From the sequence record NZ_CP025192.1: a stretch of 64,000 nt of DNA; one strand, given 5' to 3'. A program made the position numbers and the translations under genes. Position 1 is the first letter of the stretch. Each line of letters starts with the position of its first letter. Below are positions 12,240 to 30,412 of the stretch, piece by piece. This DNA comes from a plasmid. The notes beneath the pieces were generated by a model. The model was given only the letters and a program-made list of their open reading frames with translations, was not told the origin of the DNA and did no database searches.

Positions 12240-12431
12240 CCACCGTAGCCGCAGGCTTGCTCCGAGGGCAAGCCTTCTGGCAGCCGCAATGCGGCAGGAG
12301 GTGAGCGGTGGTAAGGCCAGTTACCGCTCCTAACGCGGGCGCCGCTTGTTGCCGTCGCCAGCGACGCGCGTCCACACTCCTAGACAGCAACGAAGATGCT
12401 AATAGGCGTGTAGCCGGTAGAGGAGGCAAAG

Positions 12432-14379: not shown

Positions 14380-15102
14380 TCAATAAGGGTTCGCCAAGGC
14401 CACGACCCGATTGCCCGCACCGTCGCCTCGCACCTCCAAGGCCGGCGATGTCGACAGGAGGTAAGCGGCCGAGTCGCCCAGCGCGAACGGGAACATGACC
14501 GGGCTCGACGAGATGCCATCGACCGGGAGCGCGCGCCCCGCATACCGCAGGCACGCTTCGCTGAGCCACGCCGCGACCGGCGAGCCGTGCAGATCGATGG
14601 CAGGGGCGCGGGTGATCCGCTTCCCGTTGTCCAACTTCTCGATCGTCCCCCAGCTCGCCTGCGACTGGAGCACCATGTTCGTCATGCGGCGCGTACCCTC
14701 GCGCTCCCCGTAGGTCTCCGCCATCCGCCGGTGGACTTCCGCCGACCTGCAGTCGCCGTGCAGCGCCGTCAGCCGGCCAACGATCTCAGCCACCCTTCCG
14801 AAGAAGCTGTAGGTCGCCAGGGCCATACCCCAGGTCAGCGGGACGGCCGTCGTGGACGGCGCAGCGCGATAGATTCGCGCCCCGCGCGCGGTGAAGTCGA
14901 GGAGGTCCGGGCGCGGCTCGAGCCACAGCCTGTTCAGAACCGTCCGGGTCTTCTTCTTGGCCGCCGGGCCGGGATGCGCGGCGTCCAGCAACGCCGTCAG
15001 CTCGCCGAGGCTCGCCAGCCCGGCGCTCACGCGAAGAGCCGCCTCGGCCAGCTCGAGCGGGACGAAGCGGTCGAAGCCAATCTGTGCGGCGGCCGTGCTC
15101 AT
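14380..15102 (-). CDS. brxA: putative BrxA (last gene of type-3 BREX operon)
   Basis: 240-aa ORF translationally coupled (4-nt overlap) to pglZ, at the position occupied by brxA in BREX type 3. The DUF1819 assignment is by position, not by a motif I can verify. Confidence 0.5.
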   Translation of the reverse strand: MSTAAAQIGFDRFVPLELAEAALRVSAGLASLGELTALLDAAHPGPAAKKKTRTVLNRLWLEPRPDLLDFTARGARIYRAAPSTTAVPLTWGMALATYSFFGRVAEIVGRLTALHGDCRSAEVHRRMAETYGEREGTRRMTNMVLQSQASWGTIEKLDNGKRITRAPAIDLHGSPVAAWLSEACLRYAGRALPVDGISSSPVMFPFALGDSAAYLLSTSPALEVRGDGAGNRVVALANPY

Positions 15103-17093
15103 TGATCGGCGTCCGCAACCTGCACCCGCACGAACGGCACGATGAGCTCCTCGACCGATGGTCCGCCGTGAGCGACGATCCGCTCCCCCCGCGGCACGAA
15201 CGCCTTCCGAGTGCCCGCGTACACCGGCAACACTTCTGGAGGTAGCCCGGGCACGCCGAGACGGAAGGTGTCGAGCTCCGAAGGGACGGACGCCGCCAAC
15301 GCGTCGCTACGGTATGTCCGAACCCTCTCGCCCTTGACCTCGGACACCACGCCCTGGCTGAGCCGCCCGATTCCTTCGGCCTCCACGTTCCCGTGGTCGG
15401 CCGTCAGGTAGACCTGGTAGCCGTGCCCGGCGAGCAAGCGGACGAGGCCTTCGGCAAACCCGGTGTCGCACCAAGCGGCGATTTGGCCGCTGATGCCCCG
15501 CTTCCCGAGCATCGCCCCGTGCACCAGCTCGTCGACCATGTCGACGACGATCCCGGCCACCTTCATTCCCGGCTTAGATATCGCCACGGCCAAGTCGGCC
15601 AGTTGCTCCGTCCGCTTCAACCCCTTCGCGTAGCACACCTCCGAGCTGCGGAGGCCGTTCTCCTGCCAGAAGCGCGCCCAAAGCTGCGGCTCCTGGGCCG
15701 TGGTGTCGATGGAGGTGGGGAACTCGCGCGGGCGGAGGCCGGAGAAGAGGGCCTGCCGGGAAACGGAGGTCAGGGTCGGAAGCCACGCGAAGCACGCGCC
15801 ATCGTCCGCGGCGAAGCCGCGGACCCGCGCGGCCAGGTGGTCGCGGACCTGTAGCCACTGGTCCATGGCCAGGCCGTCGAACACCACGAGCGCAACGCGC
15901 ACCTCGCCGGCGGCGCGGCGCAGCGCGAGGTACCTCGGCACGTGGTGGACCATGACCGGCCCCCTCGCGGCCGGGAGGGACGGAAGGTCCGCGAAATGCG
16001 TCGTGACCCAGAGCCTCAGGCGATCGTCGGCGTCGCGCTGTAGTTGACTCACCTGCTGCTCCAGCGGTTTCGCGGCATCCACGTTCAGGGAGTGGAAGCG
16101 GAAGATCAGCTCCCCGAGGCGGCGCGCGAAGTCGGCCCAGTCGCGGTGGGACGACCCCGTCGAAGGTAGATTGGTGGCAAGCCGCCTGGCCCCCTGGCCC
16201 ACCAAGTCTGCCTGCGTGTGCGGGTCTTCGACCAACCCCACCCTCACCCATTCCGGCACGCCGGCGGGCGGCCTCCCGACGCCGACCGGACGAAGCCCGC
16301 CATCGAGGAACAACGTGCCGACGATCGCCCGGACGTCGGGGTGCTCGAACGGCACCGCGATGGCAATCGACTCCACGGCTTCCGCGTCCGGGCCGCTGCC
16401 AGCGTCGATGCCCTGCTGGAGCAGGAACCGGCGCCAGGCATCCTGCAGGACGCGCAACGTGAAGCTCATGGATGAGAGCAGATCGGCGACCGGGAGACCT
16501 CCGATCGCGGTGTCCTTCAACAGCTGCGCGACGTGGTCGGCCAGCACCCTCGGCAGGCTCGATCCGCGGTAGTGCAGGCGCAGCAGCTCCCGCCAGAAGT
16601 CCTCCGGGCCGCCCAGCATGTAGGGGCTGATCCGGAAGACGCGGGTGAGGATGAAGTCCTTGGTCGCCGCCTCGCCCAGCGGCTGCGGCGCATGCCGGTC
16701 TTGCGCCTGGAACATCGCCTCGTGATGCTCCGAGGCGATCTGCCTCACCACGCTGTAGCTCAGCCTCGGGAAGAGGTCTGCCAAGCTGAGGCTTACCGTG
16801 CGAGCCTGACGGATGTAGTCCCACGGCAGCACGTTCACGTCGGTTCCGCGCAGCTGCAACACCAGCGCTTTTTCCGGTCCCGCCTCCCCCCGGTCCCACG
16901 CGTCCCGGTAGCGTTCCTCGAACTCCACGCGGAAGACGACCGGGTCGTCGAAGGGCAGAACCTCGAAGCCTCTCTCCCGGAGGCTGTGCAGCACGGCCTC
17001 GTCCAGTAGCACGTCGTCAGGATCGCAGGCGATCCAGAATCGGGCCAGCTCGGTGGGGAACTCCCGAAGGATCCGGTCGGTCCACGCGCTCAC
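15099..17093 (-). CDS. pglZ: BREX PglZ (alkaline-phosphatase-fold protein)
   Basis: 664 aa. C-terminal TADHGNVEAEG...VAHGGPSVEELIVPFVRV matches the PglZ-domain metal-binding region. Overlaps brxHII stop by 4 nt. Confidence 0.8.
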   Translation of the reverse strand: MSAWTDRILREFPTELARFWIACDPDDVLLDEAVLHSLRERGFEVLPFDDPVVFRVEFEERYRDAWDRGEAGPEKALVLQLRGTDVNVLPWDYIRQARTVSLSLADLFPRLSYSVVRQIASEHHEAMFQAQDRHAPQPLGEAATKDFILTRVFRISPYMLGGPEDFWRELLRLHYRGSSLPRVLADHVAQLLKDTAIGGLPVADLLSSMSFTLRVLQDAWRRFLLQQGIDAGSGPDAEAVESIAIAVPFEHPDVRAIVGTLFLDGGLRPVGVGRPPAGVPEWVRVGLVEDPHTQADLVGQGARRLATNLPSTGSSHRDWADFARRLGELIFRFHSLNVDAAKPLEQQVSQLQRDADDRLRLWVTTHFADLPSLPAARGPVMVHHVPRYLALRRAAGEVRVALVVFDGLAMDQWLQVRDHLAARVRGFAADDGACFAWLPTLTSVSRQALFSGLRPREFPTSIDTTAQEPQLWARFWQENGLRSSEVCYAKGLKRTEQLADLAVAISKPGMKVAGIVVDMVDELVHGAMLGKRGISGQIAAWCDTGFAEGLVRLLAGHGYQVYLTADHGNVEAEGIGRLSQGVVSEVKGERVRTYRSDALAASVPSELDTFRLGVPGLPPEVLPVYAGTRKAFVPRGERIVAHGGPSVEELIVPFVRVQVADADQ

Positions 17094-19903
17094 GACGCGC
17101 CGCCCGCCGGGCCGCCAACGCGCAGCATGAGAACGGAGTGGAGGTCGGGCACGCGGATCTCGGCGGCGTCGAGCCGCGCCATGCGGGTCTCGTGCTCCGC
17201 GCGCAGGCGCCTGCGGCGATACTCGCGCACGCTCGGGAGCCCGATGCGGCCGATGGCCTGATACCTGACTTCGTAGGCGTGGCGGGCGCGGTCGCGCTCC
17301 TCCCGGATGCGGGCTGCGTGCTCTTCCGCCAGCTCGGCGAAGACCTGCTCACCGTTGGAGACGGCCGCACGCTTGGCGTCGTGGAACCACCGGCCCGGGA
17401 CCTTCTCCGAGGAAAGCCCGACCAGCCGGATGCGCTCCGTGACGAGGAGATCCCAGATCCGCCTCGCGGTCGGCATGAACATGCGCCCCTCGTCGCTCAC
17501 GAAGACCGCCAGGAAGCGCCGCCTGCCGAAGTCCTCGGCCGACAGACCGATCTGCCAAAGGGACCACACGCCCCTGACGGTATCGGGCAGCCCGCCGACC
17601 TCGACCACCGGGAGCGGCTGACCGTCCACGCAGCGGGGCAGCTCGGTGATGACGGCCCGGGCCCGCGCGTCCTCGAGCGTGACCCACTCCACGTCCGGCC
17701 GGCTCGCCGCGGTACGCGCGTCGAAGCACGCACCGACAGATTCGCTGCCGTCGATCCAGCGGAGACGCCACGTATCGCCGTCCTTGATCGCAGCGCCCCC
17801 CTTCCCCGGCAGGCCGGTCGTGATCGCCCGCTCGAGCCAGAACTGCGCGGGGTGGTCCTGCCACTTGCGTGCGCCTTCCGCGTCGAGCTCCTGGTCGCCG
17901 GCGAGGAGGTCGACGTTCCTGCGGCTCTCTGCGACTGCCGACCGGAGCTGCGACGCCACCGCATCGCACTCGGCTTCGATCGCGTCCGGGTTCTGGAGGC
18001 CCTGCACGAACAGCTCGTCGAACAGCCCGTCCGCCTCAACCGAGTCCATCACGTCCGCCGCCTTGTCGACGCCAAACTCCTCCGCGATGACGGCGAGCTT
18101 CGCCTCGAGAACCTCGCGGACCCGGTGCTCGACGGTGTCCTCAAGGACCAGGTTGATCGCGCGCACCACATGCGGCTGGCCGATGCGATCGACGCGACCG
18201 ATGCGCTGCTCGACCCGCATGGGGTTCCACGGCATGTCGAAGTTGACGATCACGTGGCAGAACTGGAGGTTGAGCCCCTCGCCACCGGCGTCGGTGGAGA
18301 CGAGAATCCTGACGTCGCGGGCGAACGCCTGCTGCGCCCGCGTGCGGGTCTCAAGGTCCATGCCGCCGTTGAGCGTTGCGACCGAGAAGCCACGCGCCTC
18401 TAGGAGCGCGGCGAGCATGGCCTGCGTCGGCACGAACTCCGTGAAGACGAGGACCTTCAGCTGCGGGTCCCCTTCCTCCTGCTGGAGTTTGTAGATGAGA
18501 TCCAGCAGCGCCTCGGCTTTCGCGTCGGTCCCCTGGGCCTCAGTAGAGCGGGCGAGCTCGAGAAGCACCTTGACCTCCGCCTTCTCCGTCTGCCAGCCCC
18601 TCGCCTCGACGGCCAAGTCGATCTGCGCCTGGCCGTCCAGATCCGCCCACTCGTCGACGTCGGCGGTCTCGAAAAGGGACGGCTGGAGCTGCGGCTGGTC
18701 CAGCATTGCCAGGCGGTTCTCAAGCGTCGCGCGGATAGCCGCGGTGCTCGACGTCACCAGCCTCTGCATGAGTATCATGAGGAACCCGATGTGCCGCTGC
18801 TTCGCGGCCAGCGCCTGGTTGTAGCCGTGGCGGACGTAGTCGGTGATCGCCTCGTAGAGACTCCTCTGGGCCGCGTGGCGGTCCTGCCATGCTACGGGAT
18901 GCAGCCTCGTCATCCGCGGCTTGAAGAGGGCCCTGCCTTCCGCGTCGATCGCGGCGCGCTTCTCCGTCCGGATCACGAACGGCCGGACGCGGTCGCTCGT
19001 CACGCTACTCTCGTCGGGGAAGGAATCGCGGTCGAGCAGCTGCATGAGCCGGTGGAACTGGTCGGTCTTGCCCTGGTGGGGCGTCGCCGACAGGAGGAGC
19101 AGGTAGGGTGCGGCCTCGGCCAGCGCCGCCCCGAGCTTGTACCGCGCGACCTGGTCCGTGCTGCCGCCCATGCGGTGCGCTTCGTCGATGATGACCAGGT
19201 CCCACGACGCCGAGACCAGGTCCTCGAAGCGCTCCCGGTTGTACGTGCTGAGCTGCTCGAGGGTCCAGCCGCGGCGCCCGTCCAGGGGCTTTACGGAATC
19301 GAGCGAGCAGATCACCTGGTCGTGGAGTCGCCAGAGGTTCTCCTCGTCGCTGCGCCACTGGCGGAAAGCGGAGAGCTCGGCCGGTTCGACGAATTGGAAG
19401 CTCTCGCCGAAGTGCAGCCGCATCTCCGCCTGCCACTGGCGCACGAGCCCCTTGGGCGCGACGACGAGGATCCGCTTCGCCATGCCGCGGAGCTTCAGCT
19501 CGCGTAGGATCAGCCCGGCCTCGATCGTCTTCCCGAGGCCCACCTCGTCCGCCAGGAGGTAGCGGATCCGGTGGCGCGCCATCGCGCGGTTCAGCGCGTA
19601 GAGCTGGTGCGGCAGCGGCACCACGCTGGACTGGACCGGCGCGAGCAGGAGGTCGTCCTCCAGCGCGTCGAGCAACCTCGCCGCCGCTGCGGTATGCAGG
19701 ACGTGTTCGACCGTGGGCTGGACGGAGCCGAGCTGCGCGAGATCCTTCTCGCGGGCGCGTACGACAGCGTCACGGCTAGGCAGCCAAACCCGATAGGCGA
19801 CCTCGCCCCAGATCTCTTCCCGGTCGATCACCCGGCAGGGTGCGGCATGTCGTCCGTGCCAACACCAATCGCCTACCGAGTGCCTGCCGCCGAGCTTGTT
19901 CAC
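17090..19903 (-). CDS. brxHII: BREX type-3 helicase BrxHII (SNF2/DEAD-like superfamily-2 helicase)
   Basis: Walker A DEVGLGKT, DEAH box (IIDEAHRMG), helicase-C motifs (FTEF...STDAGGEGLNLQ...QRIGRVDRIGQ). GTG start at 19903 forms GTGA overlap with pglXI stop. Confidence 0.8.
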   Translation of the reverse strand: MNKLGGRHSVGDWCWHGRHAAPCRVIDREEIWGEVAYRVWLPSRDAVVRAREKDLAQLGSVQPTVEHVLHTAAAARLLDALEDDLLLAPVQSSVVPLPHQLYALNRAMARHRIRYLLADEVGLGKTIEAGLILRELKLRGMAKRILVVAPKGLVRQWQAEMRLHFGESFQFVEPAELSAFRQWRSDEENLWRLHDQVICSLDSVKPLDGRRGWTLEQLSTYNRERFEDLVSASWDLVIIDEAHRMGGSTDQVARYKLGAALAEAAPYLLLLSATPHQGKTDQFHRLMQLLDRDSFPDESSVTSDRVRPFVIRTEKRAAIDAEGRALFKPRMTRLHPVAWQDRHAAQRSLYEAITDYVRHGYNQALAAKQRHIGFLMILMQRLVTSSTAAIRATLENRLAMLDQPQLQPSLFETADVDEWADLDGQAQIDLAVEARGWQTEKAEVKVLLELARSTEAQGTDAKAEALLDLIYKLQQEEGDPQLKVLVFTEFVPTQAMLAALLEARGFSVATLNGGMDLETRTRAQQAFARDVRILVSTDAGGEGLNLQFCHVIVNFDMPWNPMRVEQRIGRVDRIGQPHVVRAINLVLEDTVEHRVREVLEAKLAVIAEEFGVDKAADVMDSVEADGLFDELFVQGLQNPDAIEAECDAVASQLRSAVAESRRNVDLLAGDQELDAEGARKWQDHPAQFWLERAITTGLPGKGGAAIKDGDTWRLRWIDGSESVGACFDARTAASRPDVEWVTLEDARARAVITELPRCVDGQPLPVVEVGGLPDTVRGVWSLWQIGLSAEDFGRRRFLAVFVSDEGRMFMPTARRIWDLLVTERIRLVGLSSEKVPGRWFHDAKRAAVSNGEQVFAELAEEHAARIREERDRARHAYEVRYQAIGRIGLPSVREYRRRRLRAEHETRMARLDAAEIRVPDLHSVLMLRVGGPAGGAS

Positions 19904-22677
19904 CCGCCCCCCTCGGTCCGGGTGAGCGCCTGATCGTACCAGAGGAGGAGCTTCTCGTCCTCCTGCAGCGCCTCCTCGGGAATCTTCTGGGCGACGTCGA
20001 TGATGATTTTGTAGTTCTTGGCCGACCAAGCCACCTTGAAGCCCGCGCGGAGCACTTCAAGACGGAACTCCTTCAGCCGTCGTCCGGGAGCTACTCGATA
20101 CCCCTCGAACTCTTTTAGCAAAGCCCTCTCACGCTTCTGCTCCAGATCTTGCGCCTTACCAGGATCCGGCACGAACCAGCGGTCCTTCGCTTTTGCTTTC
20201 AACACTGGATCAGATTTCTCGCGATTCCGCATTTCATGATAGTTTGTTGAAAGATAGTTATGGATTTGGCTGGGCACATCGCTAGATCCATCGTAGCGCA
20301 AGAAATTGTCCTCAAGAAGATCGGAAAGTTCGGGGCGTGTTTCGTGCTTTTTCCAGCCTGCCCCGAGCTGAGTGATGAACTCCGGGTGCAATTCCTGGTA
20401 GGTCGATGGCCGCTTCCGGAGAAAATCGGTCAACCAATCGATGGCGCTACGTTCGTCTGCAACGAACATTTCCATTTGCGGTGCCTTAGGCACTTGAGCG
20501 CGCTTCTTATCATACTCAATGACCTGATCAGGCAAGAATACCATGCCGTCTCGCTCTGGAAAGCGGCTCCGAAGACCTTCCTGAAACTCTTGGCTGGAAA
20601 GAGGCACAGGCACATTGTGCCGGATAAACCACGCCACCATACGGTCAAACAGGATGCGGGGATCGCGCTCCGCGATGAACTCGAGCGCGGCAGCCTTCTG
20701 TTTTGTCACTGGCAACTGACGAAGATGGGTCTGGACAAAATCCCAGGCTGACTCCATTGCAGGCTGGTTTTCAAACCGCTGTTCCAATCCGCCATTCGGT
20801 TTATATGCCGATATTATGAGATCCTGCTTTACTGCGACGGTAGTGGTAACGGACTTGAAACTTCCCTGCTTCTTGTCGAGAGTTGACACATCGGCAACCA
20901 CGAACCCAGCTTCTTGTAAAGCGGTTTGCAGGCTGTTCCAAACAGACGCTTGTGTATTCGAAAATACAACAGTCATCCACCGACCTGGTTTGAGGACACG
21001 GTAATATTCAGCGAAGCAAGAGGCCATTATTCGACGATAATCATCAAGAGATTTTTGTGATGCACGATTTTCTTTGGACCGGTCTACAATCGCATCAAGC
21101 CGTGCGTCCGTCATAACGCCATGCCATGCCTCAACAAGAAAATTGAGTTCTGCGTACGGTAGATTTTCTCCGAACGGAGGGTCGGTGAATACATAGTCGA
21201 TCGAGGAGTCTTCTAGGGGGAGTTTGGCTGCTGTGCCTGTGGTTGTGATAGCATTCTGTGATCTAAGCCTGAAGGCGTCGAAAGCCTTCTCAAGACGGCT
21301 CAGCTTACCTTCAAGAATATACCACGGACTGCATTCTGCATGCTGCGCTCCAACATAATAAACGCCAGCCAGATATTGGTTGACTTGCGAAAAGTGAGTT
21401 GGCGCATATCGCGCGAGGATGGACATACCCCAAATCGCTTGCTCTACGAAGTACATCAACATCGATCGAATGCGGCCATCTTTGTAATTACACGCGCTCC
21501 GCCACAAAGCTCCCATGCCGTGCGCTGCACGAGACAGAAACATGTCTTGAACAGACGTAACGCCTTTGTCACGCATTCGTGGAGCTTCCCACATATCGGC
21601 ATATGGGAAGCCGGTGGTGGGGACCTCTTCTGGAATAGGAAGGTCGTTGATTTTCTTGATGAGAGCTAGGTCAGCAGCATCTGGCTTCTTCTCATACCGG
21701 GTGCCGCCCACTTTATACGAGATTAACGAAGGCGCGCGCTTGGGGACGCTTATCGTCTTGCCGGACAGAGCATCAATCTTCGTCTCATAGCGACGATCCA
21801 GCTTCTTTTTCGTAAGTGTTGCGCCGCAGTGGGGGCATGGAAATTCGTCCCGCACTCGCTTAGTCGAATCATCGAGTGCTTCGTCGATGAAATTCACTTC
21901 GTCGGCGCAGTCGGGACACGTGAAGAGTTCGCTCCAAACCGTGAACTCAATTCGCCCCTTCGTTTTCCGATCTACATGCAATGTTTCATACATCCAGCCA
22001 ATCTCGCGCTCGACTTCAGCGAGCAACCGCTTCCCGGCGGCGGCAAAGGCGCCGACATCAAATGGTAGATTATAGTTCGCGGCGATGAAGGTCGCCGCCG
22101 GCGACAGGTCGTTCAAAACGACCTTGCGTGCGCCCCATCGGGGCGCTGGTTGGCCAGCCTTCTTCCACTCCATCTCGAGCTGCTGGCGGTAGGTGGCGGG
22201 CGCCGTGCCGCACCATTGTGCCGCCACGCCTGTCATGCCTGACCCAGCAAAGCCGTCGAGCACGACGTCACCCGGTTCGGTGAAGTGCAGGATAGACGGC
22301 ACGATGGCCAAGTGCGGCACTTTGGTGTGATAGGAGTGCGCCTTATAGATCGGGTCCGTCTTACCGACCGAGACATCAATCGCCATCGGCTCGCGCGCAT
22401 ACTCCTTGGCCGGGTCGTAGGGCTTGCCGCAGTGCTTCACGAAATCGGCTAGCCAAGGGTTAGGGCAGGCCGTGTAGTAGGGCGGATCCGACATGGCCAG
22501 GATCGCCTCGTCGGTCCCCTTCGGGAACCCCTCCTGTGTGCGGAAGGCGGGGTCCTTCAGCTTCTCGGCCAGCAGCTTCCGGAAATGCTCGCGGCGCGCG
22601 TCCTCGTTCGGAAAGGTCAGCCCCAGGCATGTCACCGCACCTGCCGCGCCAGGGCGAGGGATCAGAGTCTCATTCAT
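19900..22677 (-). CDS. pglXI: BREX type-3 DNA methyltransferase PglXI
   Basis: 925 aa. SAM motif I VLDGFAGSGMTG. Two (D/N)PP(Y/F) motifs (SDPPYYTACPNPW; FTDPPFGENLPY). Zinc-ribbon CPDC...CPHC. Distinctly AT-richer (about 50% GC) than flanking genes. Confidence 0.8.
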   Translation of the reverse strand: MNETLIPRPGAAGAVTCLGLTFPNEDARREHFRKLLAEKLKDPAFRTQEGFPKGTDEAILAMSDPPYYTACPNPWLADFVKHCGKPYDPAKEYAREPMAIDVSVGKTDPIYKAHSYHTKVPHLAIVPSILHFTEPGDVVLDGFAGSGMTGVAAQWCGTAPATYRQQLEMEWKKAGQPAPRWGARKVVLNDLSPAATFIAANYNLPFDVGAFAAAGKRLLAEVEREIGWMYETLHVDRKTKGRIEFTVWSELFTCPDCADEVNFIDEALDDSTKRVRDEFPCPHCGATLTKKKLDRRYETKIDALSGKTISVPKRAPSLISYKVGGTRYEKKPDAADLALIKKINDLPIPEEVPTTGFPYADMWEAPRMRDKGVTSVQDMFLSRAAHGMGALWRSACNYKDGRIRSMLMYFVEQAIWGMSILARYAPTHFSQVNQYLAGVYYVGAQHAECSPWYILEGKLSRLEKAFDAFRLRSQNAITTTGTAAKLPLEDSSIDYVFTDPPFGENLPYAELNFLVEAWHGVMTDARLDAIVDRSKENRASQKSLDDYRRIMASCFAEYYRVLKPGRWMTVVFSNTQASVWNSLQTALQEAGFVVADVSTLDKKQGSFKSVTTTVAVKQDLIISAYKPNGGLEQRFENQPAMESAWDFVQTHLRQLPVTKQKAAALEFIAERDPRILFDRMVAWFIRHNVPVPLSSQEFQEGLRSRFPERDGMVFLPDQVIEYDKKRAQVPKAPQMEMFVADERSAIDWLTDFLRKRPSTYQELHPEFITQLGAGWKKHETRPELSDLLEDNFLRYDGSSDVPSQIHNYLSTNYHEMRNREKSDPVLKAKAKDRWFVPDPGKAQDLEQKRERALLKEFEGYRVAPGRRLKEFRLEVLRAGFKVAWSAKNYKIIIDVAQKIPEEALQEDEKLLLWYDQALTRTEGGG

Positions 22678-24544
22678 TGTCGGCCTCGTTCGTGGGGCGC
22701 GCCGCGGGCTGACGGCCTGCGCGCAGCGCTCGGAGCTTGATGCCGGCCTCCGTCAGCACATACTGCTGGTTTGGCGACCGAGGTTTGTCCGGTACGGTCA
22801 TTCGCAGTACGCGCGCCTGCAGAAGCGGCTCGAGGTACTGTGCCATGAAGTGCGGACGCTGCTTGTAGCCCGCCCGCGCCATGAGATCTGCGAGGCTGCG
22901 CGGCACGTCCGCGTGCTCGACGACGCGCCACTGGCCTTCAGTCAACCGATCAAGCGACCGAACAAGCTCGGGCTGGCTGTCGGCAGCTTGTTCGGTGGCT
23001 TGTTCGGTCGTGGATGACGCCGTTGTCTGGTCCCCGCCCCCTTGGCCCTGTGGCGCCGCACCGGCCAGCGACGGCCCGTAACGCGAGCGGAGATGGGCGG
23101 GCAGCGTGTACTGAGCCCCCCCGGTTTCTAGCGGTGCCACCAGAACCTGGGCAACCAGGCGCTCGATAACCGCCTTCGCCGCAGCACTGGTCAGGCCCGT
23201 GAGCGCCTTGACGTCGGTGAGGTCGATGTGGCCGCGGCGGGTAAGGTACGCGAAGACCGCCGCCTCGTGCTCCGACAGGCTGGCCCCGAGGCTCGCCTGA
23301 GCCAGGAGCTGCTCCTCGGTGATCAGCTTCTCCTTCCGCATCGTCAGCCGGAAGGTCTTGTCCGCCTTGTCGTTGTCGATCTCCGGCGGGAGATAGCCGA
23401 GGCTCCGCCAGCCGTTGAAGATCGCGCCGACCCCGGTGCCGCCCTGGTCGGACAGACCGATACGCCGGAAGGCGTTCACGACGCTTGGGTTGCGGACCTC
23501 CTTGTCGCCGGGGTCCAGCAGCCTTTCCCTCGGGGAGAACGCATCGCCCGGATTGAAGAACTCGGTCTGGTTATGGAAGAACCTGATCACCGGGAGCCGT
23601 GTGTGGTCAGAGAAGTCCTGGTGGATGAGCAGGTTGATGGCCGCCTCGCGGAAGGACACGTAATCGGCGGGGTCATCGTCGCGTCTAAAGGTCGCCGCGT
23701 CGACCGAGAACGGGCGCTCGCTGTGCTTGAAGTAGAAGCCGACGATGCTCTGCCAGGTCTGGATCAGGTTCTCTTCGCAGGTCACGCGGTCCGCCCAGCG
23801 GACGCTCGGGGAGTAGTCATCCGCGCCGCTCCGATACAGCTGCAGGTCTACCGCCATGCGGGGTAGGATTTGACGGAAGTAGCCGTCCGCGCCCAGCGTG
23901 AGGATCGCTGCCCGAGTCGGGAGCAGGACGCCGCCGTGCTCGACGACGAAGCTCCACCTGCGCAGGAAGGCGTCATCGTCGTCGCCCTCGTTCCTCCCTG
24001 GGTTGCTGGCGTTGAAGCGTGCCCGGTACCACCGCAGCGATGCTGCGTCGAAGCACTGTTTGATGTCCAAATCCAACGGCTCAGCATCGAAGCGCTCGGT
24101 GGCCCCATCCCGATAGAAGCGGAGCAACTCGTCGGCGGTGCACGTGTCATCGCGACCACCCCGACGGATGAATGCCTTGCGCAGATCCCGGTCGATGTAG
24201 ACCGGCTTAGCGCGACGTTCGGCCTCGGGGATCCAGAAGGCCAGCACCGTGCCTTCGGGCAGATTGTGCAGGTGAGCGCGGACAGGCAGCCGTACGCTAA
24301 TCTTGTTCAGATCGCGCAATTGGCCGAGGAAGTCGTTCTGAACATTGTCCGCCTCGACGACGCCGGTGACCGAGAAGGAGCCGCGCGTCTCCTTGACCCC
24401 GAACACGAGGTACCCACCCGACGTATTGGCGAACGCGCTCACCGTGGAGAAGGCATTGCGCGGCACCATCGTGGCGGCCTCCTTGAACTCCACGTCGTTC
24501 CATTCGATGGACTGGAGCTTCGCCAGCAACTCGTCGCGGGTCAT
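22670..24544 (-). CDS. accessory ATP-binding protein embedded in the BREX operon (Schlafen/AlbA_2-like N-domain plus HATPase_c_4-like region and C-terminal wHTH-like tail)
   Basis: 624 aa from ATG 24544 (MTRDELLAKLQSIEWNDVEFKEA...). N-terminus resembles divergent AAA/AlbA_2 putative DNA-binding domain. Sits between brxC (2-nt gap) and pglXI (8-nt overlap). Confidence 0.6.
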   Translation of the reverse strand: MTRDELLAKLQSIEWNDVEFKEAATMVPRNAFSTVSAFANTSGGYLVFGVKETRGSFSVTGVVEADNVQNDFLGQLRDLNKISVRLPVRAHLHNLPEGTVLAFWIPEAERRAKPVYIDRDLRKAFIRRGGRDDTCTADELLRFYRDGATERFDAEPLDLDIKQCFDAASLRWYRARFNASNPGRNEGDDDDAFLRRWSFVVEHGGVLLPTRAAILTLGADGYFRQILPRMAVDLQLYRSGADDYSPSVRWADRVTCEENLIQTWQSIVGFYFKHSERPFSVDAATFRRDDDPADYVSFREAAINLLIHQDFSDHTRLPVIRFFHNQTEFFNPGDAFSPRERLLDPGDKEVRNPSVVNAFRRIGLSDQGGTGVGAIFNGWRSLGYLPPEIDNDKADKTFRLTMRKEKLITEEQLLAQASLGASLSEHEAAVFAYLTRRGHIDLTDVKALTGLTSAAAKAVIERLVAQVLVAPLETGGAQYTLPAHLRSRYGPSLAGAAPQGQGGGDQTTASSTTEQATEQAADSQPELVRSLDRLTEGQWRVVEHADVPRSLADLMARAGYKQRPHFMAQYLEPLLQARVLRMTVPDKPRSPNQQYVLTEAGIKLRALRAGRQPAARPTNEADNE

Positions 24545-24546
24545 GG

Positions 24547-27500
24547 CTACTCCACCACGAACCGCAGTTTGGTGGTGTCCCTGCCCTTGCACCGGTCGCT
24601 CAGGAACGTCTCGAAACGCTTGCGCAGGTCCTCGGGCGTGGCCGGCGAACCGCCCTGGAGCAGCGCCTGCTTGATCTCGCCGCCGGTGACTGGGATCTTC
24701 TCGAGGCCTGACAGCGCCTCCTGCACCGCCGCGACGAAGTCCGAGCCCACCGGATCGGGAAGCGCCTTCGACGCGACGAACCCGTCGACCAGCTTCCGGG
24801 TCGCGGGCTTGAGCAGGTCGAAGTTCGCCTGGATTATCGGGTCTTCCAGGTTGTCCAGCAGCGTCTGCTGCCACCCATCGAGCAGCCGGTCGAGCTCGCC
24901 GTCCAGCTGCTTCAGCATGGTCGCTGCCGGCAGCATGTCGCCCTGTTCGCTCGTCGGCCGGAAGTGGCAGTGTGGGCAAACAGGACTGGCTGCGAGGTCC
25001 GCATCCATCAAAGAGTCGCAGCTCTTTAGCTTGCCGAGCTTGTCCTCGAAGCTGTCGAGCTGGCTGGTGGGCATCAAGGAAATGTTGCGGAGCACTCGCA
25101 TTGCGATCAGCCGACCGTCCTTGCGCAGAGCTTCCTTACTCTTGTTCTCCGCCACGCCGAGGCGCGCTCTGCTATGCTGCCCGACGTAGGCAGCAACGTA
25201 GTCTTTCTTCAGGCGTGCCAGGATTTGCCGGTACTCGCCTGCGTGCTGCGCAGTTCGATCGGTTGCGAGCCGCTCAAACACCTGCTTGCGCGCCGCTTGC
25301 GCCTGCTGCACCCAGGGATCATCGCCCGTCAGCACCATCTCGGCCTGCGAGAGGTAGCCGGCCGCGGTGCCCAATTCCGCGACGAGTTCCAGCATGCGTT
25401 CGACGGCGTCCAGCGCCTCCAGGTGCTTCTTTTGCGCCGCCACGTCGTCCGAGCCGACGCGCAGGTTCTTGAGCTTGCCCACCGTGTTGTACGGAGACAG
25501 ACTCTCCGCGAAGGCCTTCAGCGCATCCAGCTTCGCCCGCCAGTCGGCGAGCTCGTTCTCGCGCAGGAGCGGCTGCCCCCAGAAGCTCAGCCGTCCCGCC
25601 ATATCGGTCGTCGCGGCGAGCACGCGCCGCGTCAGCTTCGTGACCTCCTCCTGCAGCCGCTTGACCGGCTCGTCGGACCCCTGCGCGGCCTGCTGCGCGA
25701 GACCGGGCTGGAGGCCGAGCATCTCGAATAGCGCGCGAAGGACGGCGACGTTGATCTCCCGCGGGGCCTCGACGTGCTTAAACTGCCGGAGCTCGTCGAG
25801 CGGCCGCTCGGCGAGCAGCGCGATCTTGCCAGGATCGATCTTGTCGCCGGCGACCGCCAGCACGATGTCGCCCGAGTAGACGAGTGCGCCCAGCACCGCG
25901 ACGAGCAGATCGGGCTCTAGCCGGAACTTGAGCGGCGCGAAGTACTCGACGTCGGCGCCGCCGCTCAGCAGCTCGCCGCGGTTCAGCACCTGCCCGTGGC
26001 CCTTCGCCTTGAGACGCGAGAGGACCTCCTGCGCGTAGCGGGACCGCTCCGGGTCGAGGCGATCGCCGTCCAGCATCTCGAGGCCGTCCAGGATGACCAC
26101 CGCGTCCTTGGTGCGGGGCCCGCCGGCGAGGGCGCGCAGCGCGTTCCCAACGAGCTGCTTTCGGTTCGCCTCGGTCAGCAGCGCAGTGAACGTCGGGTAC
26201 TCGGGCGCCACCTCAGCGAACCGGTTGCCCAGCGCCACGCCGGCGATCACGTTCACCACGTCGCGGAAGTTGATGCGCTCGTCGGGCCGCAGCCGCGCCT
26301 TGTCGCGCAGCGAGATCCCCTTCGTCCACTCCTGTAGGGTCCGGGCCTTGCCCTGGTAGGTGACCTCGTAGGCCGCCATTTGCTTTTCCTGCAGCCACTT
26401 GCCCATCTCGCGCAGGGCGTCGTTCGCCTTGTCGAGGTAGACGCTTTTGGCGGCGCCGCTGGCGGTCGACGCGAGGTCCTGCGCAGCGGCGTAGCAGGAC
26501 AGGTGCCGCCTGATCGCGTCGTCGGGGCCCTTGAGCCGGAAGAACACCTCGTCGGCCTTGTGCTCGTCGCGAAAGCGCGGCGGCTCGAACGGCTGGATGA
26601 AGTAGATGTAGAAGTCGCGCTCGGGCTGCGCCGTCGGCCGGTCGTTCGGCGCGCCGAAGAAGAGGTAGCCGATGCGCTCGACGCGGCGCTCCTGCCACTC
26701 GATCTGGTACTGCCAGATCTGGTGGCCGGCGACGTAGGTGGTCTCGTCCGTGCGCTCCATGAGCTGGCGGACCGCGCTGAAGTAGGCGCGGTCGAGCGCG
26801 TCGTCCGAGAGCGCCTCGGCCCGCTTCTCGATCTGGGCGTCGTAGTCGACGTCCTTCTTTAAATCCAGGAAGTACTGGTCGGTGTCGGGCGCCCTGGAGA
26901 TGAACTGGCCGTTGACGGTCTTCAGCGTCTCGCGGAGGACGGTCTGCACCAGGGAAAGCAGGTCGGCGTCGGGCTCGCCGCCCATCGCGTCGATGCCCGG
27001 TTGGAACAGGCAGAGCGTGTCCCGCAGTTCGGTGGCGGTTGGCCCCACGGGCACGTAGATGTCCCCGCCCGTCGTCAGCCGGTGCACCGAGAGGCCGTTG
27101 ATGATCCGGAGCGCCATTGGCCGGTAGGCGGGACGGGTGAACGCCTTCCTTACCCGTTCGGACAGAACCTCGGAAACTTTCAGCACCGGCCCGATGCTCG
27201 GGTCGGCGCGGAGGACGGAGTTGGCCGTGATCGTGTCCCAGAACCTGTCGTAGCCGATCAGCCCCGGGCGGTCGCCCGGTACCTCGTCGTCCAGGATGTC
27301 CTGGATCTGGTCGCGGAGGGTGACCAGCGCGCCGCGCTTCTCGGCGAAGACCAGGCGCTCGAACGTCCCGATGTAGTCGGGGTGCACCGGGAACAGCCGC
27401 ACGTAGTCGTCCATGCGCTCGTTCATGGACCCGTAAAACTTGGAGAACGGCGCCAGGTACGCCCGGATCCGCTCCTGCTGGTCGGCGGTCTTCTTCAGCA

Positions 27501-28302
27501 GACGCTCCGCCACGACGAAGCTGACGTCCTGCCGGGCGAGCAGGATCTGCGTGAACCGGTCCTTCACGCGGCGCAGGCTGTCGGCCACGTGCTGGAAGCG
27601 GCTGCTGTCGAAGACCGCCTCCTGGACGCCGGCGACGAAGCGGAACCTCAGGTGCTTCGTGACCTCGCCGATCTCCCGCAGGAAGGACAGGTCGAGGACG
27701 AGGTCGTGGTCCCTCCGGGACCGCAGGTACTCGAGGAACTCGTCGACGACGAGGAGTACGCCCTGGTTTGGGTGGCGCTCGGCGAAGGCCGCCATCATCT
27801 CCTCGAAGGCGGCCTTGTTGTTGATGACCTTGTTGGCCGGCGGGAAGACGTAGCTTACCCCGTTCTTCTCTAAGAAGATCTCGAGCTGCTGCGTGACGAT
27901 GTCCCGCAGGGACATCTGGCTCGAGATCTCGATGCGGTGCACCTTGAACTTCCCGGCGATCGCCGCGGCCGCCTCGGCGACCTTAGGATGGCGGATCATC
28001 GGGACGTACGCGGCGTCTTCGGCCACCAGCGAGAGTACCGACATGAGGTGCGACTTGCCGGTGCCGTAGTTCCCGACGACGAGCACCCCCTTGTGGTCCA
28101 CCGCCTCGTCGAACGAGAGCTGCGGGACGATGAGCTTCGCGATCCGCTCAGCCATGTCGTCCGAGATCACGTAGGTCGACACCAGCTTCCGCGCCTCGTC
28201 CGGGCGGTTGGCGTCCAGAAGTTGGATGACGGACTCGATCGGCTCGAACTGGATCAGGTCGCCATAGCGCATCGGCATCCGGTCTTTCCTGCTAACCAAC
28301 AT
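24547..28302 (-). CDS. brxC: BREX P-loop ATPase BrxC/PglY
   Basis: 1251 aa, N-terminal P-loop GNYGTGKSHL, length and architecture typical of BrxC. Overlaps brxF 3' end. Confidence 0.85.
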   Translation of the reverse strand: MLVSRKDRMPMRYGDLIQFEPIESVIQLLDANRPDEARKLVSTYVISDDMAERIAKLIVPQLSFDEAVDHKGVLVVGNYGTGKSHLMSVLSLVAEDAAYVPMIRHPKVAEAAAAIAGKFKVHRIEISSQMSLRDIVTQQLEIFLEKNGVSYVFPPANKVINNKAAFEEMMAAFAERHPNQGVLLVVDEFLEYLRSRRDHDLVLDLSFLREIGEVTKHLRFRFVAGVQEAVFDSSRFQHVADSLRRVKDRFTQILLARQDVSFVVAERLLKKTADQQERIRAYLAPFSKFYGSMNERMDDYVRLFPVHPDYIGTFERLVFAEKRGALVTLRDQIQDILDDEVPGDRPGLIGYDRFWDTITANSVLRADPSIGPVLKVSEVLSERVRKAFTRPAYRPMALRIINGLSVHRLTTGGDIYVPVGPTATELRDTLCLFQPGIDAMGGEPDADLLSLVQTVLRETLKTVNGQFISRAPDTDQYFLDLKKDVDYDAQIEKRAEALSDDALDRAYFSAVRQLMERTDETTYVAGHQIWQYQIEWQERRVERIGYLFFGAPNDRPTAQPERDFYIYFIQPFEPPRFRDEHKADEVFFRLKGPDDAIRRHLSCYAAAQDLASTASGAAKSVYLDKANDALREMGKWLQEKQMAAYEVTYQGKARTLQEWTKGISLRDKARLRPDERINFRDVVNVIAGVALGNRFAEVAPEYPTFTALLTEANRKQLVGNALRALAGGPRTKDAVVILDGLEMLDGDRLDPERSRYAQEVLSRLKAKGHGQVLNRGELLSGGADVEYFAPLKFRLEPDLLVAVLGALVYSGDIVLAVAGDKIDPGKIALLAERPLDELRQFKHVEAPREINVAVLRALFEMLGLQPGLAQQAAQGSDEPVKRLQEEVTKLTRRVLAATTDMAGRLSFWGQPLLRENELADWRAKLDALKAFAESLSPYNTVGKLKNLRVGSDDVAAQKKHLEALDAVERMLELVAELGTAAGYLSQAEMVLTGDDPWVQQAQAARKQVFERLATDRTAQHAGEYRQILARLKKDYVAAYVGQHSRARLGVAENKSKEALRKDGRLIAMRVLRNISLMPTSQLDSFEDKLGKLKSCDSLMDADLAASPVCPHCHFRPTSEQGDMLPAATMLKQLDGELDRLLDGWQQTLLDNLEDPIIQANFDLLKPATRKLVDGFVASKALPDPVGSDFVAAVQEALSGLEKIPVTGGEIKQALLQGGSPATPEDLRKRFETFLSDRCKGRDTTKLRFVVE

Positions 28303-28831
28303 TGAACGGCACCCACCCTTCCGTGCCGTAGTTCTGGTGCTCCGGGTGGCCCGGCACCGCGTAGACCAGACGCCCGTCCCGCAGCTCTCCCGGCCAAGCG
28401 GCGACGACGCGGCGCCCGTGGGAGTGCCGCCTCATCAGGTCCAGGGGACTGAGCCGTAGGGTCCAGTCGAAGAGGAGCTCTATGTTGTCCCAGAGCAGCA
28501 GGTCACGGCCGACCGTCCCGTCGGCCAGTTCCTTCAGCAGGTCGGGAGCCATGAGGTGCCGTTGGGACGCGGGCAGCGGGACGAGGAGGCGGCCGAGAGC
28601 CTCGCCCAGCCGCATGACGGGGGCATTCCGGCGCGTGGAAAGCTGCCCCAGCAGCTTGCTCTTGCCGGATCCCGGAGGACCGACGAGGAGCACGAGCTTG
28701 CTATTCAAGCCCGCGACGTCTTCGACGAGGCGCTCAAGGATGTCGATCACGGTACGCGCCTTGAACAGAGCCGAAGGTTCCGACCTCGAGCCGCATCGAG
28801 CGCCGACGCGAGGCTCTCTGGCGGAGGGCAC
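28292..28831 (-). CDS. brxF: BREX type-3 small P-loop protein BrxF (start uncertain)
   Basis: 179-aa ORF with Walker A LLVGPPGSGKSKLL and the short length characteristic of BrxF. First gene of the operon. Actual start may be downstream of 28831. Confidence 0.65.
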   Translation of the reverse strand: MPSAREPRVGARCGSRSEPSALFKARTVIDILERLVEDVAGLNSKLVLLVGPPGSGKSKLLGQLSTRRNAPVMRLGEALGRLLVPLPASQRHLMAPDLLKELADGTVGRDLLLWDNIELLFDWTLRLSPLDLMRRHSHGRRVVAAWPGELRDGRLVYAVPGHPEHQNYGTEGWVPFNVG

Positions 28832-28859
28832 GGAGCGGCTCGATCAGGGGTGCTCATCG

Positions 28860-29060
28860 TCAGGATTTGGACTGGGCAGGCACAGGGCGGACGGGGGATG
28901 AGCGACCCGCCTCGATCGCCTTGAGGCGGTCGAACTCCTCGAAGGCCATCACCACGACGACCGGTCGTCCGTGCTTGGCGACGATCAGCGGCTCGATCCG
29001 GGCGAGGTCGATCAGCCGACCGAACCCGTACTTCGCCTCCTTGGCGGTCAGCGTCTTCAT
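28860..29060 (-). CDS. orphan Phd/YefM-family antitoxin-like protein upstream of brxF
   Basis: 66 aa MKTLTAKEAKYGFGRLIDLARIEPLIVAKHGRPVVVVMAFEEFDRLKAIEA is the canonical Phd/YefM fold sequence. No toxin ORF follows; next gene is brxF 29 bp downstream. Confidence 0.7.
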   Translation of the reverse strand: MKTLTAKEAKYGFGRLIDLARIEPLIVAKHGRPVVVVMAFEEFDRLKAIEAGRSSPVRPVPAQSKS

Positions 29061-29264
29061 GCTCCACTCCGGATACGAGACGACCATCGGCCAAAATGGC
29101 CAAAATTTCAATCTCCGCGGGATGAGCAGACCCGGCACCGCGCCGTGCGGGCGGGGTGACTTGCCGGTGCAGGGCATGCGGCCCGTTGGCAAGTACTGGT
29201 CCGCTCATGGAGATGACGACTGCCAGCAGGATTGCCTGCTCGCGCCGAGGCAAGCCCACCGCAT

Positions 29265-29305
29265 ATCGAATAGATGCTAGCAATTACCTTGTTGGCGCTA
29301 GCTTG
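29265..29305. promoter_or_regulatory. GCTAGC-palindrome pair in parA promoter region (candidate parS/operator); related GCTAGCAG motifs recur at 30022-30048, 30405-30425, 31775-31800 and 32448-32485
   Basis: atgCTAGCAattaccttgttggcGCTAGCttg upstream of parA. tatGCTAGCAGGTAtg after parA. agcaGCTAGCAGCTAcgg after parG. gaaGCTAGCAGGTAgg after rep. gcTTAGCTtgTAGCAcgTAGCAgcaAGCTAgta before 32494. Confidence 0.45.
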
Positions 29306-29359: not shown

Positions 29360-30022
29360 GTGGCTGCGACGGTGCTGACGGTGGCGTCCACAAAGGGCGG
29401 CGCCGGCAAGACGACGATCGTGATGGCGCTCGCCGGCACCCTCGCCGCCGAGGGGCTGCGCGTCGCTGTCGTGGACGCAGACCCGAACCGCGCCTACGCC
29501 TCCTGGGCCGAGCAGGCCTACGAGGGCCCCGCCATCGCGGTCCGCGCCGAGGCAGACGAGGCGCGGCTCGCGGCGGCGATCGACGAGCTATCGCCCCAGG
29601 CCGACCTGGTCCTGGTGGACACGGCCGGCTTCGGCAACCGCGCCGCCCTGCTCGCCATGGCCGCGGCCGACGCCGTGCTCGTGCCCTGCACCCCGAGCCG
29701 CGCCGACGTCGAGCAGGCCGCTAAGACACTGGAACTGGTGGATGGCGCCGCTCGGGCGGCGCGGCGCGCCATCCCCGCGCGCGTTGTTCCATCGCGCCTG
29801 AAGCAGGCGACCGCGGTGTCGCGCCATGCGGTGGCCGAGCTCGACGCGGCCGCCCTCCCCCGCACCGCCGCCGGGGTCGGCGACCGCGTCGCCTTCGCCG
29901 AGATGACCTTCTCCGGCCGCGTCCCCGCCGGCGGCGACGCCGGGCAGGAGGTCGCGAAGCTGGTCGCGGAGCTGCGCAAGCTCGGCTGGTTGCCGCCCAA
30001 GCCGAGGGCGGCTCGCGCGTAG
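29360..30022 (+). CDS. parA: ParA-family partition ATPase
   Basis: Deviant Walker A STKGGAGKTT, ParA/MinD fold. GTG start (alternative GTG at 29372). Confidence 0.85.
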   Translation: MAATVLTVASTKGGAGKTTIVMALAGTLAAEGLRVAVVDADPNRAYASWAEQAYEGPAIAVRAEADEARLAAAIDELSPQADLVLVDTAGFGNRAALLAMAAADAVLVPCTPSRADVEQAAKTLELVDGAARAARRAIPARVVPSRLKQATAVSRHAVAELDAAALPRTAAGVGDRVAFAEMTFSGRVPAGGDAGQEVAKLVAELRKLGWLPPKPRAARA

Positions 30023-30064
30023 CGCCTATATGCTAGCAGGTATGAGCAAGCACGAGGACCTACC

Positions 30065-30412
30065 ATGTCCAGCAAGGGCCTGAAGCCTGCCATTGCCCGT
30101 CCCTCCGCGCGGGAAGCACTCGCCGCCGCGGACGCCGTCGCCCAGCAGGCCGGGCTGCCGCCCGCCGCCCTCTCGCCACGCCCCCCACCCCCTGCCCCGG
30201 CTGCTCCTCCCTCGGCGCCGCCCGAAGAGGAACTCGTGCAGGTGAACATTCGCGTCCGCCGCGGCCTCGGCGACCAGCTCGCGGATAGGGCGCGGGCGGA
30301 TGGTACGACGCAGAAGGTGCTGGTCTGCCGGGCGCTCGCGGCCGCCGGCTTCGACGTGCATCCGGAGGACCTCCGGGCGACCCCCGCGCCGCGCCGCCGC
30401 GGCAGCAGCTAG
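30065..30412 (+). CDS. parG: ParG-like ribbon-helix-helix centromere-binding protein
   Basis: 115 aa. Disordered Pro/Ala-rich N-tail then RHH (VNIRVRRGLGDQLADRARADGTTQKVLVCRALA). Position between parA and iterons. Confidence 0.6.
   Translation: MSSKGLKPAIARPSAREALAAADAVAQQAGLPPAALSPRPPPPAPAAPPSAPPEEELVQVNIRVRRGLGDQLADRARADGTTQKVLVCRALAAAGFDVHPEDLRATPAPRRRGSS

Follow-up and report, generated by a model that had tools for sequence, protein, structure and literature searches.

What is a gene of 624 codons doing between brxC and pglXI, in the middle of a type 3 bacteriophage exclusion (BREX-3) operon? The question is raised by a 64,000-nt stretch of the plasmid record NZ_CP025192.1 (here called the window), in which PADLOC and Pfam matches resolve an operon with the order brxF, brxC, the gene in question, pglXI, brxHII, and pglZ, followed by a terminal gene in the position of brxA. 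In the canonical BREX-3 order pglXI comes straight after brxC, and that order also rests on the 12 cargo-free loci of the survey presented below. The original prediction, made from the letters of the window, had described an extra ATP-binding, Schlafen-like gene and a candidate new component of the BREX complex. We find that the gene belongs to the prokaryotic Schlafens (pSlfn), and that it is a long-term resident specific to BREX-3, yet dispensable and often gained or lost.

The gene is a minus-strand open reading frame (ORF) running from 24544 to 22670 (ATG start, TGA stop, 624 amino acids). The longest mechanical reading frame begins further upstream, with a TTG at 24979; because all homologues begin with an identical MTRDELL, we place the start at 24544. 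Both junctions were read directly. At the upstream one, the TAG of brxC (24549..24547) and the ATG of the Schlafen gene (24544..24542) are separated by a gap of 2 nt, and a GGAG lies ahead of the ATG at 24553..24550. At the downstream one, the ATG of pglXI (22677..22675) precedes the TGA of the Schlafen gene (22672..22670), so that both genes overlap by 8 nt (ATGAATGA), with a GAGG ahead of the pglXI start at 22687..22684. The coordinates, length, gap, and overlap were thus correct as first predicted. A protein on record for Roseomonas mucosa is 100% identical to that of the window, and the family is 65 to 90% identical across Pseudomonadota, Verrucomicrobiota, and Desulfuromonadales.

Nothing around the gene marks it as a separate transcription unit. 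A promoter scan of positions 14000 to 31000 gave zero sigma-70-like sites, and in the same region there were 8 terminator-like sites, versus 9.3 expected from shuffled sequences, with none of them flanking the gene. Its GC content (0.65 to 0.66) is that of brxC, and no insertion sequence (IS) or repeat boundaries were found at its junctions. Given the tight junctions with Shine-Dalgarno-like motifs, the lack of promoter-like sites and of any excess of terminators, and the brxC-like GC content, co-transcription and translational coupling with the BREX-3 operon are plausible, and the description of an extra, non-core gene nested in the operon stands. The same observations led us to reject an unrelated mobile insertion with its own promoter and terminators, which had been offered as an alternative, while a chance ORF in GC-rich DNA is rejected by the homology and by the domain scores.

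Three Pfam domains were identified in the protein. The first is SLFN_AlbA_2 (PF04326), at residues 14 to 135, with 57.1 bits against a gathering cutoff of 25.3 (E = 3e-15). It is followed within the same polypeptide by the GHKL-type domain HATPase_c_4 (PF13749), at residues 320 to 401, with 36 bits against a cutoff of 26 (E = 5e-9), which is the order that defines a Schlatpase. Both had been called correctly beforehand. The third, a Fic-like_C winged helix-turn-helix (wHTH) domain (PF21247) at residues 550 to 598, with 54 bits against a cutoff of 27 (E = 1e-14), is new to this analysis. The protein is, then, a prokaryotic Schlafen of the HisKinase-HTH class, that is, a Schlatpase with a C-terminal HTH.

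Taboada et al. 2025 (10.1101/2025.07.24.666596) classified 5,930 prokaryotic Schlafens, of which the HisKinase-HTH class makes up 19.2%. The combination of PF04326 and PF13749 was named the Schlatpase supradomain and accounts for 58.6% of 103,533 prokaryotic Schlafen proteins; Schlatpases are mostly small proteins, with or without a C-terminal HTH (10.64898/2026.05.29.728809).

The residues expected of an active Schlafen are conserved. We compared 31 locus-derived sequences, including those of a sister clade that is about 45% identical, and 45 database homologues (76 sequences in all). The nuclease motif E-x4-(E/D)-x-K, as defined in 10.1101/2025.07.24.666596 and 10.64898/2026.05.29.728809, reads E14-WNDV-E19-F-K21 and is invariant in all 76, and each position of the SAFAN box (S36-A-F-A-N40) and the G43-G44-Y-L-V-F-G-V that comes after it is kept in at least 74. 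In the GHKL module, the N-box E300-x3-N304 together with D310, N331-P-G-D334, and the lid G363..G369-x-G371 are invariant among the 76 relatives; E300 and N304 correspond by motif spacing, rather than by direct alignment, to E314 and N318 of RzAgo. Searched against the PDB, the family profile matches 2kyy (9e-13), the C-terminal wHTH of the Fic protein 4rgl (1e-7), and the GHKL region of 3lmm (6.5e-6). At about 1e-3 it further picks up SLFN5, SLFN8, and SLFN14, in an alignment with their catalytic C-lobe that falls exactly on the motif.

The protein is therefore probably an RNase, and by analogy a tRNase. The label ATP-binding was right as far as the GHKL domain is concerned, and it understates the protein, as the conserved nuclease motif points to an RNase effector. 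Phage defense by pSlfn tRNA cleavage requires the E-x4-(E/D)-x-K motif (10.1101/2025.07.24.666596), and in the SLFN-pAgo system (RzAgo), the only one for which this has been demonstrated, ATP binding by the PF13749 GHKL domain drives both tetramerization and tRNase activity (10.64898/2026.05.29.728809). We infer from the analogy with the characterized pSlfn5, Cash, and SLFN-pAgo proteins that the present protein would be an RNase, that its nuclease would be gated by ATP-dependent oligomerization of the GHKL module, and that it would have a role in defense.

Several points weigh against this reading. The third acidic position of the mammalian SLFN active site (the Asp of "GVxD") is E52 in the window protein and Q in 33 of 45 clade members, although the invariant D66 could stand in for this ligand. 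The AlphaFold2 (AF2) model, built with 45 close homologues, is poor, with a mean pLDDT score (predicted local distance difference test) of 56 and values below 45 in the nuclease domain, so the fold of this domain is assigned from sequence profiles; a Foldseek search with the model gave 3lmm as the top fold match, followed by winged helices of the MarR/ArsR type. No model of PADLOC v2 (E ≤ 1e-3) or NCBIfam (E ≤ 0.01) matches the protein. On the experimental side, tRNA cleavage and abortive infection were shown for a pSlfn class other than HisKinase-HTH, and two of the seven pSlfn genes tested gave defense, with the HisKinase-HTH type not stated among the active ones in the available text (10.1101/2025.07.24.666596). 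For the BREX-embedded clade, the available parts of the cited Schlafen, BREX, and embedding literature report no experiment.

How common is the gene at this site? Scanning a single genome of each species, we found a PglXI relative in 406 genomes, and the best 80 of these were taken with 10-kb flanks and their BREX-3 genes mapped by tblastn. This sample spans PglXI relatives that are 64 to 76% identical to that of the window, which is a part of BREX-3 and not the whole of it. Direct adjacency of brxC and pglXI (less than 150 nt), which had been assumed as the rule, holds for only 12 of the 74 loci where this junction is visible, with extra DNA in the other 62. The junction between pglXI and brxHII is adjacent in 47 of 70 loci and not in 23. 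Nearly all ORFs in these slots are co-oriented with the operon, and the few minus-strand exceptions are short or unclustered.

The commonest occupant is a Schlafen-type gene. It was found in the brxC/pglXI slot of about 25 of 74 loci, with 21 intact orthologues that are 54 to 67% identical to the window protein (clade A), while a sister clade (clade B, 44 to 46% identical to the window protein) is found in the pglXI/brxHII slot of about 13 of 70 loci. Taken together, about 38 of the 80 loci have a Schlafen-type gene in one slot or the other. A BREX-3 operon of Accumulibacter (L055) codes for both clades, one in each slot (clade A at 6758-8632 of that locus and clade B in the pglXI/brxHII slot), plus HEC-01, which suggests that clades A and B are not redundant. 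The caveat of the original prediction, that the gene might already be common at the site under another name, therefore applies in part: the architecture and its link to BREX are published, and the slot is held by a Schlafen gene in about one-third of loci rather than in most.

The same slots house a variety of other modules, namely, HEC-01A/B (an ABC ATPase with DUF4276), HEC-02A/B, SIR2 with HerA, PD-T7-3, an OLD/AriA-like ATPase, a 630-residue HATPase_c_3 protein, and several ORFs without assignment. This mix-and-match content, with brxC/pglXI filled more often than empty, is what would be expected if the Schlafen gene were an independent hitchhiker, i.e., a self-contained defense gene or a selfish, toxin-like gene in a permissive operon "sink," without functional link to BREX but with the gains of co-expression and co-transfer. 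The embedding of genes in BREX, DISARM, and restriction-modification (R-M) operons is general, with 96.7% of them co-oriented (10.1101/2024.01.29.577857), and most Schlatpases are small stand-alone proteins (10.64898/2026.05.29.728809).

A hitchhiker should, however, also be found in other contexts, and a reverse survey argues otherwise. A metagenome scan with the family alignment gave 80 loci, 44 to 71% identical. Of these, 73 have a flank of 1.5 kb or more on one side, and in 71 of the 73 the contig also carries BREX-3 genes. The clade, down to about 45% identity, was thus encountered without BREX-3 genes only in the two remaining loci. One of them (L154) is a contig of 4.4 kb, too short to judge. 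The other (L117, positions 6701-10574) carries a copy that is 65% identical and truncated at its 5' end: the homology begins abruptly at residue 59, so the nuclease motif and the SAFAN box are missing. It has the 630-residue GHKL gene downstream and phage tail-like genes (DUF7483 and DUF4376) upstream, and could be a remnant of a rearrangement, an assembly chimera, or a nuclease-less, phage-borne derivative. Separate lookups located the gene in the brxC/pglXI slot of Pseudomonas aeruginosa (L001), of a Verrucomicrobiota metagenome-assembled genome (MAG), where the overlap of 8 nt is the same as in the window, and of the Roseicitreum antarcticum plasmid pRA04 (L086). In these loci the Prokaryotic Genome Annotation Pipeline (PGAP) names it "RNA-binding domain-containing protein." The remote relatives found on other plasmids (25 to 30% identical) are stand-alone genes with BREX not nearby.

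The junctions are likewise conserved and specific to each slot. In each of the 21 loci that have brxC directly upstream, the clade A gene starts 2 to 5 nt past the stop of brxC, and where pglXI is the next gene, the distance to it ranges from -8 to +5 nt. Clade B genes start 18 to 22 nt past the pglXI stop and overlap brxHII by 1 to 14 nt. In total, tight junctions are kept in more than 30 loci besides the window. The sequences also vary together: across 21 clade A loci, the Schlafen protein identities between pairs of loci track those of BrxC (Spearman 0.59; Mantel P = 5e-4) and PglXI (0.57) about as tightly as BrxC and PglXI track each other (0.66). The slot-specific junctions and the shared phylogeny with BrxC exceed what random insertion would produce, and on balance we consider an independent hitchhiker to be unlikely, although it is the strongest of the competing explanations.

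Co-evolution does not mean fixation. When the 63 fully observed loci are placed on a BrxC tree, 30 lack a Schlafen gene, while clade A alone is present in 22, clade B alone in 10, and the two together in 1, with at least 18 changes of state versus 27 when the labels are shuffled. The nearest BrxC relatives of the window are without the gene, which, like the frequent gains and losses, would also suit a hitchhiker. Specific residence in BREX-3 combined with frequent gain and loss gives the profile of accessory cargo and not of a core subunit. The gene is not present in all BREX-3 operons and its product matches no BREX protein model, while it is nested co-oriented between core genes, in a slot shared with recognized defense modules in related operons.

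This distribution also bears on the idea that the protein is an integral subunit or sensor of BREX-3, on which methylation or restriction would depend wherever an operon has the gene. Such a role is compatible with the apparent translational coupling to both neighbors, the co-evolution with the BrxC and PglXI proteins, the confinement to BREX-3, and the DNA-binding wHTH domains. A subunit would nevertheless hardly be lacking in about half of the loci surveyed, those with the BrxC nearest to that of the window among them, or occur in two different slots in which it is positionally interchangeable with unrelated defense modules. The lack of a match to any BREX model in PADLOC and NCBIfam, and the presence of a full nuclease motif, as is typical of Schlafen effectors that act autonomously, point in the same direction, and we regard this role as very improbable. 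The earlier proposal of a protein stoichiometrically coupled to the BREX complex is not borne out, given the frequent gain and loss and the unrelated modules in the same slot. Nor can the gene be called a new BREX component, as it is present in the same slot in about one-third of loci and in either slot in about half, and both its architecture and its association with BREX have been published.

The presence of one or two C-terminal wHTH domains raises a further alternative, that of a transcriptional regulator of the operon similar to BrxR, in line with the old COG2865-type name [quoted passage not shown] and with the name "transcriptional regulator" given to some relatives. In addition, no WYL-type BrxR gene was found upstream of brxF in the window (28832-29360 and beyond). 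Such genes are present in L001 and L086, but these loci also carry the Schlafen gene. A pure DNA-binding regulator would have no need for invariant nuclease and ATPase residues, the gene lies in the middle of the operon without a promoter of its own, and the characterized relatives are RNases. This is the alternative to which we give the least credence, and a BrxR-like function seems highly improbable.

We prefer to read the protein as an ATP-gated tRNase of the Schlafen type, a second-line effector co-expressed with BREX-3, and hold this reading to be probable, if far from assured. The Schlafen gene would share its transcript with the rest of the BREX-3 operon, its translation would be coupled to that of brxC, and its product would be inactive in uninfected cells. 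Upon infection, a cue would lead to ATP binding by the GHKL module and to oligomerization, by which the Schlafen nuclease would become active and cut tRNA or some other RNA. The resulting shutdown of translation would provide an abortive infection-type defense that backs up the methylation-based protection of BREX. Possible triggers are a component of the phage, DNA to which the wHTH domains bind, and the inactivation of BREX itself.

The last of these triggers leads to a more specific version of the effector reading, which does not contradict it. Here the Schlafen protein would be bound to BrxC and/or PglXI and held inactive by an intact BREX, as in the case of PrrC, and would be freed to cut tRNA once a phage anti-BREX protein (e.g., a DNA mimic like Ocr) disables the system. 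The near confinement of the clade to BREX-3 while remote Schlatpases stand alone, the co-evolution with BrxC, about as tight as that of PglXI, the conserved clade A start behind brxC, and the fidelity of each of the two sister clades to its own slot would all agree with such a guard, and there is a precedent in PrrC, which is encoded in the EcoprrI operon and activated by Stp (10.1101/2024.01.29.577857). However, about one in two BREX-3 loci that are otherwise complete lacks the gene, there are some 18 gains or losses across the 63 BrxC tips, and the same slots also house systems known to act alone. Linkage and co-transfer could by themselves explain both the co-evolution and the restriction to BREX-3. 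We put the guard forward tentatively, as a rather unlikely but specific refinement; within the effector reading we rate it only slightly below the independent passenger. More speculative still is a form in which clade A (behind brxC) and clade B (behind pglXI) are dedicated guards, each docking on the protein encoded just upstream. In this form an intact BREX-3 complex would restrain both clades, and a phage anti-BREX factor that disables the complex would cause the tRNase to fire. The outcome would be a fail-safe in the style of PrrC/EcoprrI built from a Schlafen nuclease, sometimes aided by the 630-residue GHKL protein as a partner.

This possible partner, a HATPase_c_3 (GHKL) gene of about 630 codons without a PADLOC match, is present in the brxC/pglXI slot of 12 of the 80 loci of the first survey (L007, L031, L034, L036, L037, L038, L041, L051, L053, L062, L070, and L081). 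All 12 have a Schlafen-type gene, usually adjacent. It was also seen in L001, in L117, and in 10 other metagenome loci, and not in the window. As both genes co-occur in 12 of 12 loci, are usually adjacent, and are also paired outside BREX in L117, they may constitute a two-gene module. Two other cargo genes recur in the brxC/pglXI slot, an ORF of about 640 residues in L026, L067, and L073, which has no Pfam or PADLOC match, and one of about 140 residues in L013, L020, L021, and L025; both are candidates for a defense function by guilt-by-embedding.

A Schlafen-GHKL-wHTH gene in BREX is an already known kind of gene and a common published passenger. [quoted passage not shown] In the Cash paper (Nat Commun 2026, PMC13462974), a Schlafen-ATPase-DNA-binding cluster (cluster 2) is described as "tightly associated" with BREX. 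There is accordingly little new in kind here, as a catalogue of these genes appeared in 2026 and related Schlafen effectors are by now established biochemically. What we add is descriptive: there are two cargo slots with a clade specific to each, the coupling junctions are conserved, and a phylogeny shared with BrxC goes along with frequent turnover. In this sample the brxC/pglXI slot is filled more often than it is empty, most commonly by a Schlafen gene, which makes BREX-3 a good system to ask whether embedded effectors are independent passengers or wired guards. In place of "RNA-binding domain-containing protein" or "ATP-dependent DNA helicase RecG," the names in public use, one could write "BREX-3-associated Schlafen-family RNase (Schlatpase-HTH)."

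The coordinates of the Schlafen gene, its domains, and the other genes of the operon are collected in Table 1.

Table 1. Features of the BREX-3 operon and its embedded Schlafen gene, in positions of the window
Feature	Position	Strand	Basis
Schlafen(AlbA_2)-GHKL-wHTH gene, 624 aa ("Schlatpase-HTH")	22670..24544	-	ORF and translation; 3 Pfam domains; homologues
brxC/Schlafen junction	24542..24553	-	Direct reading; gap of 2-5 nt also in 21 other loci
Schlafen/pglXI junction	22670..22687	-	Direct reading; 8-nt overlap also in L003-L005; elsewhere -8 to +5 nt
Schlafen/AlbA_2 nuclease domain, residues 14-135	24140..24505	-	PF04326; family profile against PDB
Catalytic motif E14-x4-E19-x-K21	24482..24505	-	Translation; invariant among relatives
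GHKL (Bergerat-fold) ATP-binding module, residues ~296-401	23342..23659	-	PF13749; aligns to 3lmm residues 299-395
First winged-helix-like region, residues ~425-474 (low confidence)	23123..23272	-	Model helices; weak alignment to 3lmm C-terminal wHTH; Foldseek
C-terminal wHTH (Fic-like_C), residues 550-598	22751..22897	-	PF21247; 4rgl match; conserved block P585..G601
brxF (start codon uncertain)	28292..28831	-	PADLOC BrxF, E=2e-36, residues 29-170
brxC (BREX-3 ATPase, DUF6079)	24547..28302	-	Pfam DUF6079, 1896 bits; PADLOC BrxC, 1753 bits
pglXI methyltransferase (internal low-GC block ~20050-22000)	19900..22677	-	PADLOC PglXI, 1331 bits
brxHII helicase	17090..19900	-	PADLOC BrxHI/BrxHII model, 1400 bits; Pfam SNF2-rel_dom and Helicase_C
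pglZ	15099..17093	-	PADLOC PglZ, 730 bits; Pfam PglZ
brxA-position protein, 240 aa, last gene of the operon	14380..15102	-	Terminal after pglZ in >60 BREX-3 loci, 37-68% identity

The true start of brxHII is near 19880-19900, while its mechanical ORF reaches 20029, and the protein in the brxA position has no Pfam or NCBIfam match. The pglXI gene is itself uneven, with a GC content of 0.45 to 0.57 over about residues 226 to 876 (20050-22000) versus 0.62 to 0.71 in the rest of the operon. Next to the most similar Schlafen proteins (Teichococcus oryzae, 87%) there is a PglXI of only 73% identity, and the closest PglXI (83%) is from Rhizobium. The low central GC content, in line with the differing closest relatives of both proteins, suggests that pglXI is a mosaic, its central and target recognition part having been swapped in from a donor of lower GC content.

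Past the brxA end of the operon and convergent with it, there is a gene for a type IV restriction enzyme of the GmrSD family (BrxU-like) at 12432-14198 on the plus strand, so the BREX-3 operon, the Schlafen gene, and the GmrSD gene make up a three-layer defense island. Directly upstream of brxF, a ParA/VirC1-like gene (29360-30022) and a RepA_C plasmid replication gene (30776-31786) are encoded on the plus strand, and a tyrosine recombinase (12289..11180), an ISL3 transposase (10971..9418), and an integrase-like gene (39604..38438) are found nearby on the minus strand. No tRNA genes were detected in the 64 kb of the window. The island appears to be located on a plasmid-like replicon or an integrated element; a megablast of the whole operon against the PLSDB plasmids gave no real match, so this collection does not contain the replicon. 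For two minus-strand ORFs in this area, 28747..29283 and 29518..30249, there is no family match; the second of them overlaps parA and so is probably spurious.

Last, the protein can be compared with the systems that it resembles. The closest are the HisKinase-HTH pSlfn proteins, or Schlatpases, with which it has in common the domain order SLFN_AlbA_2-GHKL-HTH, the nuclease motif, the SAFAN box, and the E and N residues of the GHKL module. The available parts of the cited Schlafen literature give neither biochemistry nor a defense phenotype for a stand-alone Schlatpase-HTH, and the characterized Schlafens have other sensors, namely, an Ig-like domain in pSlfn5, DUF262, or, in RzAgo, the Argonaute core. 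Among structures, 3lmm (DIP2311 of Corynebacterium diphtheriae, a structural genomics target) has the same AlbA_2-GHKL-wHTH layout and is the best match for both the GHKL sequence and the overall fold, while 2kyy, also a structural genomics target, matches the Schlafen domain; both are about 16 to 18% identical to the window protein, have no assigned function, and lack a BREX context. BrxR differs in both architecture (WHD-WYL-CTD) and position, as it is encoded upstream of the operon, whereas the window protein has no WYL domain and is encoded in its middle.

The association of Schlafen-ATPase-wHTH genes with BREX, within or next to the core loci, is the same as that reported in PMC12839542 and PMC13462974, although the available text of both stays at the level of a catalogue, without slot-specific clades, coupling junctions, co-phylogeny, or experiments on these genes. 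The PrrC anticodon nuclease of the EcoprrI R-M operon, activated by Stp, is the model of an embedded guard (discussed in 10.1101/2024.01.29.577857). The likeness would lie in a tRNA-targeting nuclease, if the window protein is indeed one, combined with an NTPase switch and encoded mid-operon in a methylation-based defense system. PrrC has an ABC ATPase and an anticodon nuclease domain of its own, without homology to the window protein, which shows only the SLFN, GHKL, and wHTH domains. Payne et al. 2024 (10.1101/2024.01.29.577857) described the defense genes that lie within operons of the BREX, DISARM, R-M, and Hma systems, among them BrxU and PARIS of type 1 BREX, and these are likewise co-oriented and nested between core genes. 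The Schlafen gene of the window matches none of the HEC or PDC models in PADLOC v2, and, unlike most of the embedded systems, its clade seems to be restricted to a single host system, BREX-3.

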